A DNA stretch of 64,000 nucleotides from Mycobacteriales bacterium (GCA_046595815.1 JBKJSN010000093.1:1343-65342), one strand, 5' to 3'; numbered from the stretch's first letter, positions 30,485 to 59,022 are shown. A program made the numbers and translations. Notes: generated from the sequence alone by a model not told the origin.

Positions 30485-31427
30485 GGCTCGGGTCATCCCG
30501 CTGCGCGCCGTGGACGAGCCGCCCCGCAAGCGGGCCGTCAAGCCGCGCACAGAGGCGCCCCCGCCGCCCCCGCCCGTGGCCCCAGCGGGAGACTGGGAGC
30601 GCAAGCTCGCGGGTGGGCTGGCCTTCCTGCGTCGCCGCCTCACCGGCGATTACGAGGTGGACGAGTTCGGCTTCGACTCCGACCTCACCCACCACGTGCT
30701 CATGCCGCCGCTGCGGCCGATCTACGACAAGTGGTTCCGGGTCGAGACCCGTGGGCTGGAGAACGTGCCGGACGTCGGTGGCGCCCTCATCGTGGCCAAC
30801 CACTCAGGCACCATCCCGGTCGACGCCGTGATGGCCTCGCTGGCCGTGCACGACCACCACCCGGCCCGGCGGCACCTGCGCCTGCTCGGGGCTGACCTGG
30901 TCTTCACGATGCCCGTGGTGGCCCCCCTGGCCCGCAAGAGCGGGCAGACGCTGGCGTGCAACGCCGACGCTGAGCGCCTGCTCGCGTCCGGCGAGCTCGT
31001 CGGGGTCTTCCCCGAAGGCTTCAAGGGCGTCGGCAAGCCGTTCTCCGAGCGGTACAAGCTCCAACGCTTCGGTCGCGGTGGCTTCGTCTCCGCAGCCCTG
31101 CGCACGGGTACGCCCATCATCCCGGTGTCCATCGTGGGAGCCGAGGAGATCTACCCCCTCATCGGGAACTCCAAGACGCTGTCCCGGCTGCTCGGGCTGC
31201 CCTACGTGCCGATCACGCCGTTCTTCCCGTGGCTCGGGCCACTCGGCGCCATCCCGCTGCCGTCGAAGTGGATCATCGAGTTCGGCGAGCCGATCGAGAC
31301 CGCCCACCTGGGTGCCGCGGCCGCGGAGGACCCGATGCTGGTCTTCAACCTGACCGACCAGGTCCGCGAGACGATCCAGTCGACGCTCTACACGCTGCTC
31401 ATGCAGCGCCGCAGCGTCTTCTTCTAA
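30477..31427 (+). CDS. lysophospholipid acyltransferase family (Rv0502-like)
   Basis: [28 protein letters not shown]. Confidence 0.9.
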
Positions 31428-32308
31428 CGCTTCAGCGACCGGCGCATCGCCGCGCCGGCCAGCACGCCGCCCACCACCAGGCCGACGCCACCCGCGGCCG
31501 GGATGCCGACCTTGGCGGCCTTGCGGCCGGTGCGGAAGTCCTTGATCTCCCAGCCCTGCTCCTTGGCCTCGGCCCGCAGCGCGGTGTCCGGGTTGATGGC
31601 CACCGCCGTACCGACCGTGGAGAGCATCGGGATGTCGTTCGCCGAATCGGAGTACGCCGTGCAGCGGGCCAGGTCGAGCCCTTGGCGCTGGGCGAGTGCC
31701 TTGACCGCCTCGGCCTTGGACGGGCCGTGCAGCGGCTCGCCGACGAGGCGGCCGGTGTACAGGCCGTTCTCGACCTCGGCGACCGTGCCGAGGGCACCGG
31801 TCAGACCGAGTCGCTTGGCGATGATGCGGGCCAACTCCACCGGCGTCGCGGTGACGAGCCAGACCCGCTGGCCTGCGTCAAGGTGCGTCTGGGCCAGAGC
31901 CCGGGTCCCGGACCAGATCCGCTCGGCCATCAGCTCGTCGTAGATCTGCTCGCCGTACTCGACGATCTCCTTCACCGACTTGCCGGCGACCAGGGACAGC
32001 GCCTTCTCGCGAGCCTCCGCGACGGCGGCGAGGTCTTCCTTGCCGGCGACCCGGAACTTCAGCTGCTGGTAGCCAAAGCGCAGCAGGTCCTTGGTCGTGA
32101 TCAGGCCCCGCCCGGCCATGCCCTTGCCGAAGAAGTAGATCGAGGCGCCGCGGATCATCGTGTTGTCCACGTCGAAGAACGCGGCCGCCGTGGGGTCGGC
32201 GGGCACCTCGAGGGACGCCTCGACCTCGGCCGCAGCTGCTGAGGCCGCACCCGCCAGCACAGCGGACACCCCGTCGCCGCTCGCCGACCTGTTGCGAAGC
32301 CTCACCAC
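31424..32308 (-). CDS. HAD-IB family hydrolase (SerB1-like)
   Basis: [25 protein letters not shown]; start uncertain (32305-32359). Confidence 0.9.
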
Positions 32309-32360
32309 CGGATCTCCCACCTTCGACCGCGTCAGGGATGTCAGGTTCACCCTAGCCAAG

Positions 32361-32431: not shown

Positions 32432-33949
32432 TTAGCCCTGGTGCGCCAGGCGGCGACGGCGGGCGACGAGCGCGAGGCCCATGAGGCTGATCGCGATCGG
32501 GCCGGTCAGGGCGAAGTTCGCACCCGTGCGGGCCATCACCGGCTGGGCCGTGGTCGTCGCCGGGCGCGTGGTGCGCTGCGGCGGGACCGAGGAGTTGGCC
32601 TTGACGACGTCGGCCGCGGCCGGGACGAACTGGATGTCCAGCAGCGGCTTGGTGCCGAAGACCGCGCCGACACCCGGCAGCGTCGGGTTCACGACGAGGC
32701 GAGCGGCGGAGACGGAGCTGGCGGCGTGGTCGGGCGTCTCGATCTGCTCGCCGACCGCGGTCTGGGTCAGCGTTGCACCCAGGACGCTGTTGAGCAGGGT
32801 CGTGATCTGCGCCAGGGCGCCGTTCACCGCGGTGACGACGGCTGCCGGCAGAACCGGGCTGCCGAGGGCAGCCTGCAGGCCATTGGTGACCTCGAGGCTG
32901 AGCAGGTCCTTCACGTTGACCTTGAGCAGCGCGTTCTGGCCCTTGTCGGCGGTCGCCTTGCTGATGCCGTTGCCCAGCTTGGCCGACGCCTGCGAGGTGA
33001 GGCCGTCGACGGTCACCAGACCGCCCAGCGCGCTGACGCCGATGAGCTTGTTGCTAGAGGTGGACGTGACGACGCCCGCAGCGCGCTTGACCGTCTGCTC
33101 CGACTCGATGAGGCCGACCTTGAGCAGCGAGGTGTCCGCAGCAGCCGACTTGATCTTGCCGGAGAGCAGGCCCGGGAGGGCGTCGAGCTGGTCGATGACG
33201 TCGGCGATGGCTGCCTGGACCTCGTCGGTGGTCGGTCCGGTCGCGCCGGCGCTGGCCTCGTCGAGGGCATCGGTGACCTGGCCGAGCAGACCGGTGACGG
33301 TGTTGCCGACCGTGGTGGTGACGCCGCCGATCGCCTCGGTCTGCGAGGCGCTCTGCGTGCCGAGAGCCGTGGACAGCACGGCAGCGATCTGCACGTTGAG
33401 CAGCTCGAGGATCTTGTCCAGGACGCCCGTGCCGTCGACCGTGAGGTTCGCGACCGTGCTCAGGCTGTGCGACACCTCGCCGTCAACGGTCGGGTTGTTG
33501 GCGACCGAGTTGAGCTCGAGGGCCTTCGCGTGGATGCCGAAGCCGGCCAGGCCGTCCTTCAGCTGTTGCGGCAGCACCGTGAACGGCGCCGGCGCCGGCT
33601 TGCCGTACTCCGCCGTCACGCTCTTGTTGAGCAGACCTGACAGCGCGACGACGTTGCCGTTGGCGCCGAGCGTCGAGGTCGCGATCGCCTTGACGTCGTT
33701 GGTGCGGATGGTGCCGCCCGTGAGGACCAGGTCCTGGGTGAGCGTCTGGGGCAGGCCGGCCGTCTTGAGGACGTCCGCGAGCTGCGCAGGCATGTTGATG
33801 GTCAGGCGGATGACGGAGCCGCCACCTGACGCAGTGAAGTCGGTCTTCTGAGTGTTGACGGCACCCGCCGTACCCGCACCGGCAGCGACGAGCGTGCCGG
33901 TAGCCAGGGCAAGAGCGGTCAGCCGCGCGACCCGTCCAGTGCTGGTCAT
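32432..33949 (-). CDS. secreted A/T/L/V-rich surface protein with LAXTG-like sorting signal
   Basis: Signal peptide; C-terminal MARTG + hydrophobic helix + RRRR; AAGGGG RBS; strongly biased codon usage. Confidence 0.8.
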   Translation of the reverse strand: MTSTGRVARLTALALATGTLVAAGAGTAGAVNTQKTDFTASGGGSVIRLTINMPAQLADVLKTAGLPQTLTQDLVLTGGTIRTNDVKAIATSTLGANGNVVALSGLLNKSVTAEYGKPAPAPFTVLPQQLKDGLAGFGIHAKALELNSVANNPTVDGEVSHSLSTVANLTVDGTGVLDKILELLNVQIAAVLSTALGTQSASQTEAIGGVTTTVGNTVTGLLGQVTDALDEASAGATGPTTDEVQAAIADVIDQLDALPGLLSGKIKSAAADTSLLKVGLIESEQTVKRAAGVVTSTSSNKLIGVSALGGLVTVDGLTSQASAKLGNGISKATADKGQNALLKVNVKDLLSLEVTNGLQAALGSPVLPAAVVTAVNGALAQITTLLNSVLGATLTQTAVGEQIETPDHAASSVSAARLVVNPTLPGVGAVFGTKPLLDIQFVPAAADVVKANSSVPPQRTTRPATTTAQPVMARTGANFALTGPIAISLMGLALVARRRRLAHQG

Positions 33950-33990
33950 GTGATCCCCTTGTAGCGGTTCTGTCACCGAAGTTGGTGACG

Positions 33991-34019
33991 ATCTCGGCAT
34001 TCCGGACGTTCCGCTTGAA
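33991..34019 (-). promoter_or_regulatory. putative sigma28/WhiG-type promoter of the surface-protein gene
   Basis: TTCAA-N16-GCCGAGAT. Confidence 0.55.
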
Positions 34020-34060
34020 CCGGACCCTTGCGGATCCGGGTGGCGTGCCGTCTTGCCCCC

Positions 34061-34088
34061 TCAACGAGCGTTCCCAGCCTAGGTGACG
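34061..34088 (-). promoter_or_regulatory. putative sigma-BldN-type promoter of the surface-protein gene
   Basis: CGTCAC-N16-CGTTGA. Confidence 0.7.
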
Positions 34089-34205
34089 GGGGGCACACGA
34101 GGAATTTTAGGAGTCTTGTGATTTTTGGGGTAATTCGGGCACAAGGCTCGTTTCACACCATCACGCAGCGTACTGCCCCGGTCACGCAGCCGCCAACGCC
34201 GCGCC

Positions 34206-34238
34206 GAGCGGGCACTGAGCGGGCACTGAGCGGGCACC
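34206..34238. repeat. 11-bp tandem repeat x3
   Basis: GAGCGGGCACT GAGCGGGCACT GAGCGGGCACC. Confidence 0.85.
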
Positions 34239-34258
34239 GGGCAGTGAACCGACTCGGG

Positions 34259-35482
34259 CTAGGGCTTGACGGCGGGCAGGGACTGCGGCGCGGGCTGCAG
34301 CGTCGGCAGGCCCGTGGGCTGCGGCAGCAGCGTCGGCAAGATCGTGGGCAGGATCGTCGGCCACACGCCGGGGGACGGAGAGGTCGTCGGCGTCGGGGTC
34401 GGCGTCGGCTCGCTGGTGGGTTCGGTCGTCCGTTCCGGGGTGGGCTCGTCGGTGGGGGACGTCGTCGGACCAGGCGTGGGCTGCGGGGTCGGGCCCGGCT
34501 CGCCGCAGGTGCACGGCGGGACACCGTTGTCGTCGGGCTGCTCGGGGCTGGCGCTCGCACCCGGCGTGGGACCGGGCTCCACAGGAAGGGTCGGGCCGCC
34601 GGTGGCCGGGTCGCATGACTGGCCGCAGGTGCCCAGGTTGAGCAGCTCGACGGCGGTGCTGCCGACCTCCTCCACCAGGTCCAGCGACTGCTGGGCCGCG
34701 AGGGCCGTGCCCGCGGGCAGCTGCGGGATGAGCGTGGCGAGGCGGGCTTGCTGCTCGAGCGAGAACGAGCTCAGGACGCGCAGCGGAGCCGTGCGGCCGG
34801 TGTTCCGGTAGACGCTCTCGAGCAGCGCGCGGCCCTTGCGGGTCTCGGTGTCGAAGTCGGCCAGGGTGTCGTTGATGCGATCCTGCCGCGAACCGGAGGC
34901 CAGGCTGCCAGCAGCCAGCGTGCCCGTGCCGGCGCCGCTCAGGGCGAGCTCGCCGTCCCCCTGCGCCAGCGCTCGCACCTCGCGCAGTCGGGTGGCGGCG
35001 AACTCCAGGTGCTTGCCGCCGCGGGCGGTGTCGTTGTCGGCGAGCTGCAGCTGCAGGCCCTCGCTGACGCGCTTGAGGCTGTAGAAGGGCTGACCGGGCA
35101 GGGAGCGTGAGGAGGCCACGCCCATGCCGGTGATCGCGACGACGCCGGCCATCGCACCGGAGGCGAGCGCCATGCGCCGTTGCGCCGTCCAGCTCTGCGA
35201 CCACGCGCGCACACGCTCGAGTGACCCAGCACTCGCGGGCACGGCGGCAGCCGCGGGAGCGGCCTGGGCTCCGTGGACCTCCGCCACGGCGAGGAGCCGC
35301 TGACGCAGCGCGATCCGGAACTCCGGGCGAAGGGAGGCCTTGTCGTCCAGAGCGGGAGAGATGACCCGGAGCCGGGTGGCGAGCGTCGCGAGCCCAGCCG
35401 TCCTGGTCGTCGGACCGGCGACAGCCCCCTCAAGCAGACGCGCGAGCTCTTCGGCTCGGGCGCGGTTGCCCAGGGGGTTCAT
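34259..35482 (-). CDS. rsbN: DUF5667 anti-sigma factor RsbN-like
   Basis: RAEELARLL, PEFR..LRQRL, TM, SLPGQPFYSLKR..E, L.FA.TRL.E; Pro/Thr tail; directly downstream of bldN. Confidence 0.8.
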   Translation of the reverse strand: MNPLGNRARAEELARLLEGAVAGPTTRTAGLATLATRLRVISPALDDKASLRPEFRIALRQRLLAVAEVHGAQAAPAAAAVPASAGSLERVRAWSQSWTAQRRMALASGAMAGVVAITGMGVASSRSLPGQPFYSLKRVSEGLQLQLADNDTARGGKHLEFAATRLREVRALAQGDGELALSGAGTGTLAAGSLASGSRQDRINDTLADFDTETRKGRALLESVYRNTGRTAPLRVLSSFSLEQQARLATLIPQLPAGTALAAQQSLDLVEEVGSTAVELLNLGTCGQSCDPATGGPTLPVEPGPTPGASASPEQPDDNGVPPCTCGEPGPTPQPTPGPTTSPTDEPTPERTTEPTSEPTPTPTPTTSPSPGVWPTILPTILPTLLPQPTGLPTLQPAPQSLPAVKP

Positions 35483-35555: not shown

Positions 35556-35584
35556 CCAACGAGCGGAGGGCCACTGGGGTGACG
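35556..35584 (-). promoter_or_regulatory. putative sigma-BldN-type promoter of rsbN
   Basis: CGTCAC-N17-CGTTGG. Confidence 0.6.
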
Positions 35585-56333: not shown

Positions 56334-56361
56334 TCAACGACGCGTTGGGTTGATGGTGACG
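56334..56361 (-). promoter_or_regulatory. putative sigma-BldN-type promoter of the bldC-family gene
   Basis: CGTCAC-N16-CGTTGA, same boxes and spacing as 34061-34088. Confidence 0.7.
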
Positions 56362-57133: not shown

Positions 57134-57276
57134 CCGGAGCCGCGGGTGTGACGGCATTCGGCGGGAATGCCCAAGCAGTTGGACTAGTGGCATATGGCCC
57201 GCATGTGCCATGGAGCACTGGCGCCCTGGTCTGGACACTCCTGAGCAACCTGACCTAGTTGCACCTGGAGCACTTC

Positions 57277-59022
57277 GTGATCCGTCGCCCCCTCCTCGCC
57301 ACGACCGCCGCCGCAGCTGTCCTTGCGCTGATCGCCGCATCTGGCTCAGCCTCTGCCGCCTCGACCACCTCTGCCGCCGGACGTGCCACCACGAGCGTGA
57401 CCGTGCTGGACCTTTCCGTCGCGGGGCACGAGCTGAGCCTCGTCGACCTTGCACTGAGCAGCGACACGATCGCCTCTCCGCGGGTGTCGTCGATCGCCCT
57501 GACCCCGGTCACGGTGGACGGCACGGGCTACGGCCGCCAGACGGTCAACCAGTCGACGTCGCCGAAGACCGTCGGCGCCTTGAGCACGCCCTCGGCGGTG
57601 GGCCCGTTCGCGGCCCTCACCAGCCCAGCAGTCGAGCTGACTGCGACGAGTACGCCGTCCAACCGGGCGGGCGCCGAATCGCTCGGCACGGTCAAGGTGC
57701 TGGGTCTGCCAGTGAAGCTGGTGGGTGAGCTGACGACCTCCACCTCCGTCACCGCGACTGCAGGGGCCGCTGGCGTCACGACGATCCGCATCGACGACCT
57801 GGCCCTGCCCAGCATCGCCGACCTTCTCGGTGCGCTCGGTCTGGACCTTTCCGCCCTTCCGCTCGACACCCTCGATGAGCTGATCAACTCCCTGGAGCTC
57901 ATCACCTCGGCGCTGGTGGCCGCTGAGAATGCCGTAGACGACGCGCAGGCCGCGGTCGATGCCGCCACGACAGACCTGGCGACCAAGACCGCTGACCTTG
58001 CCGCGGCGGAGGGGGCCCTCACGGCCGCTGAGGCCGCGTTCGCGACCGCCACGACCACGGTGGACGCCCTGCTGGCCACAGCCGGGATCGCCGACGTTGC
58101 GACGTACGAGGCGCTGTCCCAGCTGCTCAAGGATGCTGCCGAGCTCCTGGCTCCCGGCTTGGCCGCAGCAGTCACCGACTACCTCGCCGCGGAGGCGGCG
58201 GTCGCTGCGGCGACGGGGGTTGTCGCCACCGCCCAACTGGCCTTGGACACCGCCCAAGCGCTGCTCGCCAGCCTGACCTCCACGCTGACCTCGGCGATCG
58301 CGACCCTGCGCACGCTGTTGACGGCTCGCCTGGATGCGACACCGCTCGTGAGCCTTGACAGCCTTGAGGTCAGCACGAAGGCCTCCGCCACGAGCGCGAG
58401 CAAGGGCGGCCAGCACGCGACGGTCGTCGGCGGGACGGTGAAGGGCCTGGAGGTCCTGGGCGTCGACGTGCTCGCGGAGGTGACAGGCAGCCGGACCCTG
58501 GACCTGGCCGGGGTCGCCTCCTCGACCATCGCCGCGGTGAACAGCCTGATGGCCGAGGTCACCGGCACCTTGTCCGACGTGCTCTCGAACGTGCCCGGCT
58601 TCCCGGTGCTCGACGTACCCGCTCCCAAGGTGGGCCTGCTCACGAAGTCGACCTCGACCTCTATCAGCGGCGGCTTCGGCCGGGCGTCCGCGTCGATCAG
58701 CGGGCTGACGATCACGATCCCGGGCATCACCCTGCCGACCTCGCTGGCCCTGCCCGGCGCTGCTGGCCTCCCCGCGATGACCAGCGTCACGCAGGTGGCT
58801 GGGCAACTGACCAGCGCACCGATCACTGCACGCGTACTGACCCTGCGCGACCAGGCTGCGTTCCGACCAGGGGTCATCGGCAGCGGAACCTCGGCGGGCG
58901 GGCCGTCCGGTAGCACCGGTGGCATCCCGAACACGGGCCTCCCGGTCGGCGTCGCTGCCCTGTCGCTCCTGCTCTTGGGGGGCGCCCTGGCCGTGCGTCG
59001 CCAGCTGGCCATGGTCGGCTGA
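57277..59022 (+). CDS. secreted A/T/L/S-rich surface protein with coiled-coil and LPXTG-like anchor
   Basis: Signal peptide; Ala-rich heptad region; IPNTG + hydrophobic helix + RR. Confidence 0.8.
   Translation: MIRRPLLATTAAAAVLALIAASGSASAASTTSAAGRATTSVTVLDLSVAGHELSLVDLALSSDTIASPRVSSIALTPVTVDGTGYGRQTVNQSTSPKTVGALSTPSAVGPFAALTSPAVELTATSTPSNRAGAESLGTVKVLGLPVKLVGELTTSTSVTATAGAAGVTTIRIDDLALPSIADLLGALGLDLSALPLDTLDELINSLELITSALVAAENAVDDAQAAVDAATTDLATKTADLAAAEGALTAAEAAFATATTTVDALLATAGIADVATYEALSQLLKDAAELLAPGLAAAVTDYLAAEAAVAAATGVVATAQLALDTAQALLASLTSTLTSAIATLRTLLTARLDATPLVSLDSLEVSTKASATSASKGGQHATVVGGTVKGLEVLGVDVLAEVTGSRTLDLAGVASSTIAAVNSLMAEVTGTLSDVLSNVPGFPVLDVPAPKVGLLTKSTSTSISGGFGRASASISGLTITIPGITLPTSLALPGAAGLPAMTSVTQVAGQLTSAPITARVLTLRDQAAFRPGVIGSGTSAGGPSGSTGGIPNTGLPVGVAALSLLLLGGALAVRRQLAMVG

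Follow-up and report, generated by a model that had tools for sequence, protein, structure and literature searches.

In Streptomyces, the long chaplins ChpA–C are BldN targets anchored by class E sortases. Chaplins are described as carrying two cysteines and three GN motifs 12–13 residues apart, and the same account presents CwpA and CwpB of Actinoplanes missouriensis as hydrophobic, non-chaplin substrates of SrtE (PMC13251363). The Streptomyces BldN consensus is given as CGTAAC-N16-CGTTGA (PMC2375139); BldN is held by RsbN until release (PMC6101532), and the rsbN promoter of S. venezuelae depends on BldN (PMC4255298). BldC recognises head-to-tail repeats of 9 bp and binds the promoters of whiI, where a site has been footprinted, and smeA (PMC5859096), and such sites cannot be predicted bioinformatically according to the authors of a further study (PMC6428758).

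Here, we describe P1, an exported protein with a sortase-type tail encoded next to bldN and rsbN in a window of 64,000 nucleotides (the whole stretch of DNA analysed) from a Mycobacteriales bacterium (GCA_046595815.1 JBKJSN010000093.1:1343-65342; 3.13-Mb assembly, 70% GC, 89% complete). The literature searched on choice-of-anchor P proteins, sortases and BldN regulons contained no description of the P1 family or module. On our best reading, which is by analogy, P1 would do the work of the long chaplins or of Actinoplanes CwpA/B while belonging to neither group.

The P1 locus, its product and its family

31424..32359, minus strand: HAD-IB hydrolase gene, downstream neighbour of P1
32361..32398, minus strand: 17-bp GC-rich hairpin 3' of the P1 stop, structure conserved; putative terminator or 3' stabiliser
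32432..33949, minus strand: P1 ORF, 505 aa, exported, sortase-type tail; start ATG at 33949
32435..32536, minus strand: sorting signal, comprising MARTG (residues 472–476), a hydrophobic helix and an RRRR tail; family consensus LPRTG
33860..33949, minus strand: signal peptide, residues 1–30, with predicted cleavage site
34259..35482, minus strand: rsbN-like anti-sigma gene (DUF5667), directly upstream of P1
35628..36260, minus strand: bldN-family ECF sigma factor gene (TIGR02952), predicted start codon
56072..56287, minus strand: second BldC-family gene (bldC2), with its own BldN-type promoter at 56361–56336

The 505-aa ORF proposed by the sequence-only reading is real, and its product has the claimed composition, dominated by Ala (15.0%), Leu (12.9%), Thr (11.9%), Gly (10.3%), Val (10.3%) and Ser (6.7%), with zero Cys and zero Trp counted. 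Codon bias is high, as suggested (GC3 0.92), but not extreme, ranking 155 of 2662 by iterative CAI over crudely called ORFs of the genome. The hairpin read as a strong terminator is stable (z −5.67), and a long GC hairpin lies 3' of the stop in the homologous loci listed. P1 displays the layout of a sortase substrate, with signal peptide, pentapeptide, hydrophobic helix and basic tail, and a T/P-rich linker precedes MARTG. The claimed MARTG–TM–RRRR signal is present in P1 itself, but the family signal is LPRTG (73 of 119 sequences, against FAPTG in 16, LARTG in 8 and MARTG in 4); FAPTG, FARTG and MARTG are marks of the clade around the query. Alanine at the second position, as in the class E motif LAXTG, is thus found in the query and replaced by proline in most of the family, and SrtE1 is described as accepting either residue in its motif (PMC5148588). 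G476 and R499 are invariant across the 119 sequences. Mature P1 is hydrophobic (GRAVY 0.285; 0.18–0.54 in 117 homologues), compared with 81 secreted ORFs, chosen crudely, whose median is −0.18. A second wall protein at 57259–59022 was considered as a relative and discarded, as it gave no alignment with P1.

The neighborhood of P1 is strongly conserved. The bldN product scores 209 bits against TIGR02952 (cut-off 206.45). Among 45 distinct core P1 loci, the claimed linkage is kept, with rsbN or bldN upstream of P1 in 36 of the 37 that have enough upstream flank, and the HAD gene lies downstream in 41 of 41; in the single exception, rsbN lies beyond a 4-kb insertion and P1 has kept its promoter. 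Of 36 genomes belonging to the query's family, 24 carry a P1 family member, as does 1 of 24 from other families of the order; bldN is present in 31 of 36 and 17 of 24, respectively; many genomes in these presence/absence tallies are incomplete, which inflates co-absence, and kin are not independent. A further P1 copy was found in the rsbN–HAD slot itself in G025, whereas the match in G035 is a non-syntenic paralogue. The one case from another family, G051, carries its P1 homologue directly after bldN with two CGTAAC-N16-CGTT sites; save for this genome, no P1-like gene was present in the rsbN–HAD interval of the other families examined. In G003, G006 and G010 this interval holds what we take to be Ter-like genes. 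Retention of bldN in family genomes without P1 (G006, G010, G036) indicates that a genome can maintain bldN without it.

The family comprises more than 119 full-length homologues from uncultured Mycobacteriales/Frankiales genomes. A word-indexed search returned 123 matches, those listed being nearly all full length at 30–82% identity and coming from genomes labelled Mycobacteriales, Frankiales or Frankiaceae bacterium; a profile built from 119 homologues reached 264 clusters at 50% identity. Conservation is concentrated at the two ends, with values of 0.88 for the signal peptide and 0.74 for the tail against 0.41–0.57 for the mature part, and synonymous changes from codon 8 onward indicate that the signal peptide itself is under selection. 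The family alignment contains no conserved catalytic-type residue set.

The description of P1 as uncharacterised stands in part: Pfam gave nothing at E ≤ 0.1, and Pfam, NCBIfam, PDB profile, Foldseek and VIA-align searches returned no confident enzyme or adhesin family, but P1 partially matches the choice-of-anchor P model NF040603 (residues 263–347; 19.4 bits, E 8e-4, under the cut-off of 27). Among 97 homologues drawn from 256 (two named close ones and 95 mostly full-length distant ones), 25 match this model and 8 exceed the cut-off, always over one segment covering only positions of about 35–120 of 185. When the P1 family was compared by hhalign with the full choice-of-anchor P family encoded in this genome, the alignment covered the tails alone. 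The Atlas points to unnamed Actinomycetota clusters and, as a weaker lead, to choice-of-anchor G/DUF8394 (0.86 for the query, 0.93 for a homologue). Judged by these profile comparisons, P1 and the choice-of-anchor P proteins are probably distant relatives. The likeness extends to the type of protein, these being actinobacterial, exported and beta-rich with varied anchors, whereas P1 differs by its partial, sub-cut-off model match and its helical insertions.

The AlphaFold model of P1 (pLDDT 80, pTM 0.72) predicts many long β-strands, with amphipathic helical insertions at residues 176–269 and 345–390. No convincing solved-structure match emerged from sequence profiles, Foldseek or VIA-align: PDB sequence-profile hits were discarded as helical-bundle noise, Foldseek returned only β-barrels (TM ≤ 0.14), and the best VIA-align hit was a designed helical binder covering the helical part only (Z 8.1, rmsd 2.9, 100 aligned). 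The fold matches listed did not include an Ig-like isopeptide fold. The genome's full choice-of-anchor P domain (G000:C132), folded at pLDDT 89 as a stand-in for the β-core, had no Foldseek match at E ≤ 0.001 and a best VIA Z of 6.0, blanks that do not make the fold new.

These models bear on an alternative that we consider unlikely, in which P1 is a BldN-induced, wall-anchored binding protein, with a curved β-sheet and a helical lid for a lipid or hydrophobic ligand, or an adhesin, and not a coat. The predicted long meandering sheet and apolipophorin-like bundle (1aep; Z 6.7, rmsd 4.2, 117 aligned) would suit such a role, and the best VIA rows for the choice-of-anchor P domain are LptG/LptD β-jellyrolls (Z 5–6, 62–70 aligned); all Z values, however, lie within the tool's 'common arrangement' range. 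A variable mature part with conserved ends, as in P1, is typical of adhesins. Against this, P1 has 6 aromatic residues in 441, no uptake genes lie nearby, and high codon bias together with the strong hairpin fits an abundant structural product.

Promoter, leader and upstream elements

33955..33960, minus strand: Shine–Dalgarno-like AAGGGG
33972..33989, no strand assigned: GTCACC-N6-GGTGAC inverted repeat, more likely a leader hairpin
33990..34025, minus strand: four phased 9-bp units in the predicted leader, two starting GTCCG; likely a BldC-type array, containing the claimed WhiG promoter
34061..34088, minus strand: BldN-type promoter of P1, CGTCAC-N16-CGTTGA, one mismatch from CGTAAC-N16-CGTTGA
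34103..34143, minus strand: AT-rich block with BldC-like element and conserved A-tract; 11 of the element's first 12 bases match the footprinted whiI site
35558..35584, minus strand: BldN-type promoter of rsbN, CGTCAC-N17-CGTT, serving as internal calibration of the motif

The proposed BldN-type promoter of P1 is well supported across homologous loci. CGT[AC]AC-N16/17-CGT[TA] occurs in 41 of 44 core P1 loci, the other three being one base off, and CGTCAC-N16-CGTTG forms the conserved core of the upstream-region alignment. The motif also lies 3' of bldN in 46 of 49 distinct BldN loci. Within this genome it occurs 15 times (nine do not fall in a called ORF, and there are also those preceding rsbN and a sortase); enrichment in this one genome is modest, with 9 matches at spacer 16 against 1–6 at other spacers, while a stricter pattern gave 148 matches against 29 for reversed-pattern controls over 23 genomes of the genus. 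Among the matches listed, those in 10 genomes of the family lie immediately 5' of ssgA-like genes. It was absent from the 700 bp upstream of the LuxR domain of a bldM-like gene, and the 450 bp upstream of bldN held neither a BldN-type nor a BldD-type site. We considered whether this lineage in particular has moved its −35 box to CGTCAC and rejected the idea: the promoters of a second sortase (sortase-2, below) use CGTAAC in those genomes and the sigma-4 region is unchanged, so both −35 forms are likely read. P1 thus likely has a promoter of its own that sigma-BldN reads, as judged from motif conservation.

The sequence-only reading had also placed a WhiG promoter and a BldD box upstream of P1. 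A loop built on these sites would have WhiG and BldN both transcribing the gene and BldD repressing it. The genome does encode BldD and a WhiG/FliA protein above cut-off. The candidate site TCAA-N16-GCCGAGAT, however, has 3 mismatches to the consensus TAAA/GCCGATAA, for which at most 2 are described as allowed (PMC8325347); the strict pattern is found in 0 of 43 loci and a loose one in 11 of 43, and conservation is no lower in the spacer than in the boxes. Across the genome, the loose pattern shows no excess at spacer 16 (8 matches against 0–11 at other spacings). BldD-type sites follow the pattern TnAC-N5-GTnA. Neither this pattern nor AGTGA..TCAC occurs in the upstream region. Dual transcription with BldD repression is accordingly very improbable.

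A set of BldC-type 9-bp repeats is the likelier identity of the sequences claimed as WhiG promoter and BldD box. The AT-rich tract noted earlier is there (60% AT near 34142) and coincides with the upstream BldC-like element. In 37 of 45 loci, the pattern G[TC]CCGNWW occurs in the 75 nt leading up to the −35 box, whereas 2.5% of random windows contain it, a comparison to be read with the pattern having been picked after viewing the alignment, the control being random, mostly coding DNA, and the genomes being related; its positions cluster at −42 to −45 and −52 to −55, one helical turn apart. As at whiI and smeA, the units are 9 bp long and head-to-tail, and the upstream element is similarly distant from the predicted start. 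P1 differs from both in having a second putative array downstream of the predicted start, and in the presence of a second BldC copy with a BldN-type promoter. The genome encodes a canonical BldC (G000:C123) in addition to BldC2, which has exactly the recognition helix seen in the solved protein. The BldN-type promoter of bldC2 is found at 17 of 18 genus loci and at 1 of 12 others, there far upstream. We propose, at only slightly above an even chance, that the 9-bp repeats flanking the P1 promoter are bound by BldC or BldC2 and that this binding sets the timing. Of the earlier feed-forward scheme from WhiG through BldN to P1 and from WhiG to P1, the BldN-type promoter is conserved and the WhiG promoter is unsupported; a feed-forward loop, if any, more likely runs from BldN through the second BldC copy to the gene.

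The GTCACC-N6-GGTGAC repeat is present as claimed, but no more than 3 of 43 loci have it in exact form, and homologues vary in the length of the loop. The BldM homodimer palindrome is described as the 16-bp TCACcCgnncGgGTGA (PMC4125116). In the window, the outer arms and spacing of the repeat fit TCACcCgnncGgGTGA and the inner bases do not; N6 is the commonest spacing of GTCACC/GGTGAC repeats in the genome (6 against 0–3). As this spacing varies in homologues, the repeat is more likely a leader hairpin.

The leader as a whole, which is conserved in sequence, might instead act as a structured RNA, a stabiliser or switch and not a DNA array, with P1 an abundant housekeeping wall protein that lies near rsbN by chance. 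Its fold is somewhat stable (z −2.66), and two alternative pairings are each kept in 20–25 of 25 sequences at most positions. RNAalifold, on the other hand, gave 6 pairs in the leader, none with two-sided change, and Rfam matched nothing over the leader in the upstream region and nine homologous loci; a c-di-GMP riboswitch considered there was dropped for want of an Rfam match. The GTCCG unit also occurs upstream of the promoter, outside the transcript, and the promoter is of ECF type and travels with the gene, all of which makes this explanation improbable.

Sortases and comparison with chaplins and Cwp proteins

A search for class E sortases, proposed together with the anchoring claim, found one above cut-off in the genome. 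Sortase-2 (G000:C132:18897-19589) is a divergent class-E-like enzyme below the class E cut-off, scoring 124 bits as class E-like against 84 as class C, and no class C sortase exceeded its cut-off in the genome. CGTAAC-N16/17-CGTT stands upstream of sortase-2 in 20 of 24 loci with flank, and next after sortase-2 comes a gene for a 431-aa exported product of its own that has no sorting motif. In a tally of 61 genomes, P1 and sortase-2 occur together in 22, P1 alone in 5, the sortase alone in 2 and neither in 32, where kin are not independent, so that Fisher values overstate the association, and where two unpublished genomes, G023 and G042, are counted as rows (as in the 41-genome tally below), with no conclusion depending on these two alone. 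All five P1-only genomes are 76–88% complete; among the 14 family genomes that are at least 90% complete, 12 have both genes, 2 have neither and none is discordant. Outside the family, the two occur together in G051 only, among 24 genomes. G003, which is without P1, has in-frame stops in its bldN and sortase-2. These patterns suggest that P1 is likely attached to the wall by sortase-2, with which it shares promoter motif and distribution, though this pairing is a prediction, as the genome also encodes the canonical class E enzyme and some ten further candidate sortase substrates.

The same shared motif and distribution, along with the unusually conserved signal peptide and tail, could be taken to mean that P1 is the subunit of a covalent pilus-like fibre polymerised by sortase-2. 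We consider this improbable. The class-E-like rather than class C scores of sortase-2 speak against it, no lysine column is conserved above 50% in the P1 family (best 50%), and there was no pilin match by sequence or fold. Nor is sortase-2 adjacent to P1, whose neighbors are rsbN and the HAD gene.

Anchoring of individual P1 molecules would instead resemble that of the long chaplins. P1 shares with ChpA–C a BldN-type promoter, a signal peptide, a sortase tail and a hydrophobic mature part. It differs in the family motif (LPRTG against LAXTG), in adjoining rsbN, in the BldN motif carried by sortase-2 and in having no chaplin or rodlin partners that we found. The claimed lack of a chaplin domain is borne out (no PF03777 match at E ≤ 0.1), and the other chaplin marks are likewise missing: P1 has no Cys pair, and its GN dipeptides at 98, 215 and 326 are not spaced as in chaplins. 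The predicted large globular α/β fold of P1 also contrasts with chaplins and CwpA/B, which are described as having small β clusters within disordered sequence. Like P1, CwpA and CwpB are non-chaplin and hydrophobic; they are sortase-dependent wall proteins tied to development in a flagellated actinomycete, and P1 is a predicted wall protein of this kind. As described, they differ from it in being 337 and 436 aa long, in bearing Cys and large disordered regions, and in using the single class E sortase. In the parts consulted, that account draws no link between CwpA/B and BldN (PMC13251363), and P1 is set beside them by description.

Chaplins and P1 do not coincide in the genomes surveyed. PF03777 was found in 0 of 37 family genomes and in 8 of 24 from other families, none of the 8 with P1; since 16 of those 24 lack chaplins and all but one of the 16 also lack P1, this exclusivity is weak evidence. 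In the flanks examined, none of six chaplin loci from other families had bldN, rsbN or the HAD gene as a neighbor. Rodlin (NF041022) was above cut-off in 0 of 41 genomes, an uninformative absence given that there were none in other families either.

Proposed role and significance

The absence of detected chaplins, hydrophobic export next to bldN–rsbN and a promoter motif shared with sortase-2 point to a likely developmental wall coat. In the mechanism that we propose, BldN freed from RsbN would switch on P1, sortase-2, rsbN, bldC2 and ssgA-like genes; P1 would be exported and then joined to peptidoglycan, where its hydrophobic, amphipathic body may alter the surface in aggregation, emergence into air or spore coating, and BldC-type binding at both flanks of the promoter may set the timing of P1. 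That P1 is a BldN-induced, sortase-anchored hydrophobic wall protein that alters the surface at a developmental stage, as long chaplins do, we hold to be somewhat more probable than its denial, and the coat function taken by itself we place within much the same modest range. A bolder version, in which this widespread uncultured actinobacterial family has remodelled its BldN output so that BldN co-induces a coat subunit of new fold, a private sortase and its own BldC (a loop from BldN through BldC2 to the coat), yielding a covalently anchored, self-associating developmental coat whose evolution was independent of chaplins, is a speculative and rather doubtful possibility.

BldN orthologues are widespread in complex actinomycetes, and the known surface outputs, chaplins and rodlins, come from Streptomyces. 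P1, a sortase regulated along with it and the few other predicted members of the regulon (rsbN, bldC2 and ssgA-like genes) provide a testable BldN output where chaplins were not found. They also hint at a developmental cycle in uncultured Mycobacteriales with small genomes (about 3–4 Mb), which carry BldD, BldC, BldN, WhiG and SsgA-like proteins and, in some cases, flagella. The literature searched attaches no function to the choice-of-anchor P/G families, and P1 offers a handle on these proteins; should the bolder version hold, P1 would provide a first hint at what the choice-of-anchor P/G superfamily does.

Variation and constraint at the P1 locus

The gene for P1, the 505-aa exported protein with a sortase-type tail beside rsbN-bldN, varies in its setting among relatives. 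In G051:C17 (L072), bldN lacks an adjacent rsbN and is followed directly by a P1 homologue, with two BldN-type sites (CGTAAC-N16-CGTT, predicted sigma-BldN promoters) preceding the latter. A frameshift near residue 387 splits the homologue in G020:C17 (L018), placing its sorting signal out of frame. G003 carries stops within both bldN and sortase-2 (L071, L166), the divergent class-E-like sortase co-occurring with P1; P1 itself is missing, and Ter-like genes occupy its slot between rsbN and HAD. These features point to apparent decay of the BldN/P1/sortase-2 module in G003, though an assembly error could also account for them. Among 24 close loci, three signal-peptide codons are near-invariant as DNA, and GGA is kept despite being a rare codon; the three could act in translation as a signal, or serve as one more binding unit.

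window 33929-33949, -, signal-peptide codons 5-7 of P1 (GGA CGG GTC)

Other proteins encoded near sortase-2 and bldC2

A choice-of-anchor P protein and an exported protein are encoded near sortase-2 in the source genome, G000, and another exported protein is encoded near bldC2, the second BldC-family gene.

G000:C132:10552-11859 (L180), choice-of-anchor P (full) and DUF11 protein, FAPTG tail
G000:C132:17605-18900 (L033:176-1471), 431-aa exported protein, directly 3' of sortase-2
window 57259-59022, +, second exported protein, 587 aa, IPNTG tail

The L180 gene, 7 kb from sortase-2, has a BldC-like tandem 30 nt upstream; its product is predicted to fold into a nearly all-beta domain, for which the PDB yielded no match. 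The 431-aa protein ends in a membrane helix and lacks a sorting motif; its homologue follows the sortase at most sortase-2 loci. The IPNTG protein is beta-rich at both ends around a long helical insertion, and its GRAVY of 0.57 was the highest among 81 crudely picked secreted ORFs. At 10 other loci, homologues are likewise encoded close to bldC2. A BldN motif was not seen for the gene, and profile comparison with P1 gave no significant match.

Candidate WhiG/FliA and BldN targets in G000

Flagellin genes are also present in 8 of 22 genus genomes. One in G000 is preceded by a GCCGATA box and, judged by sequence, is a better predicted WhiG/FliA target than P1.

G000:C86, C115, flagellin genes
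G000:C164:1340-2170 (L181), SigH, Firmicute-type (Spo0H-like), NF006148 above cut-off
G000:C13:5136, C35:1128-1853, C130:13626, C124:14855, C190:19800, C207:4702, additional BldN-type motif sites

A CGTAAC-N17-CGTT motif lies upstream of the SigH gene. Genes behind the additional sites encode a priming glycosyltransferase for exopolysaccharide, a protein resembling peptidoglycan hydrolases, a subtilisin-like protease and, for the remainder, unknown proteins, a candidate regulon heavy in cell-envelope functions.
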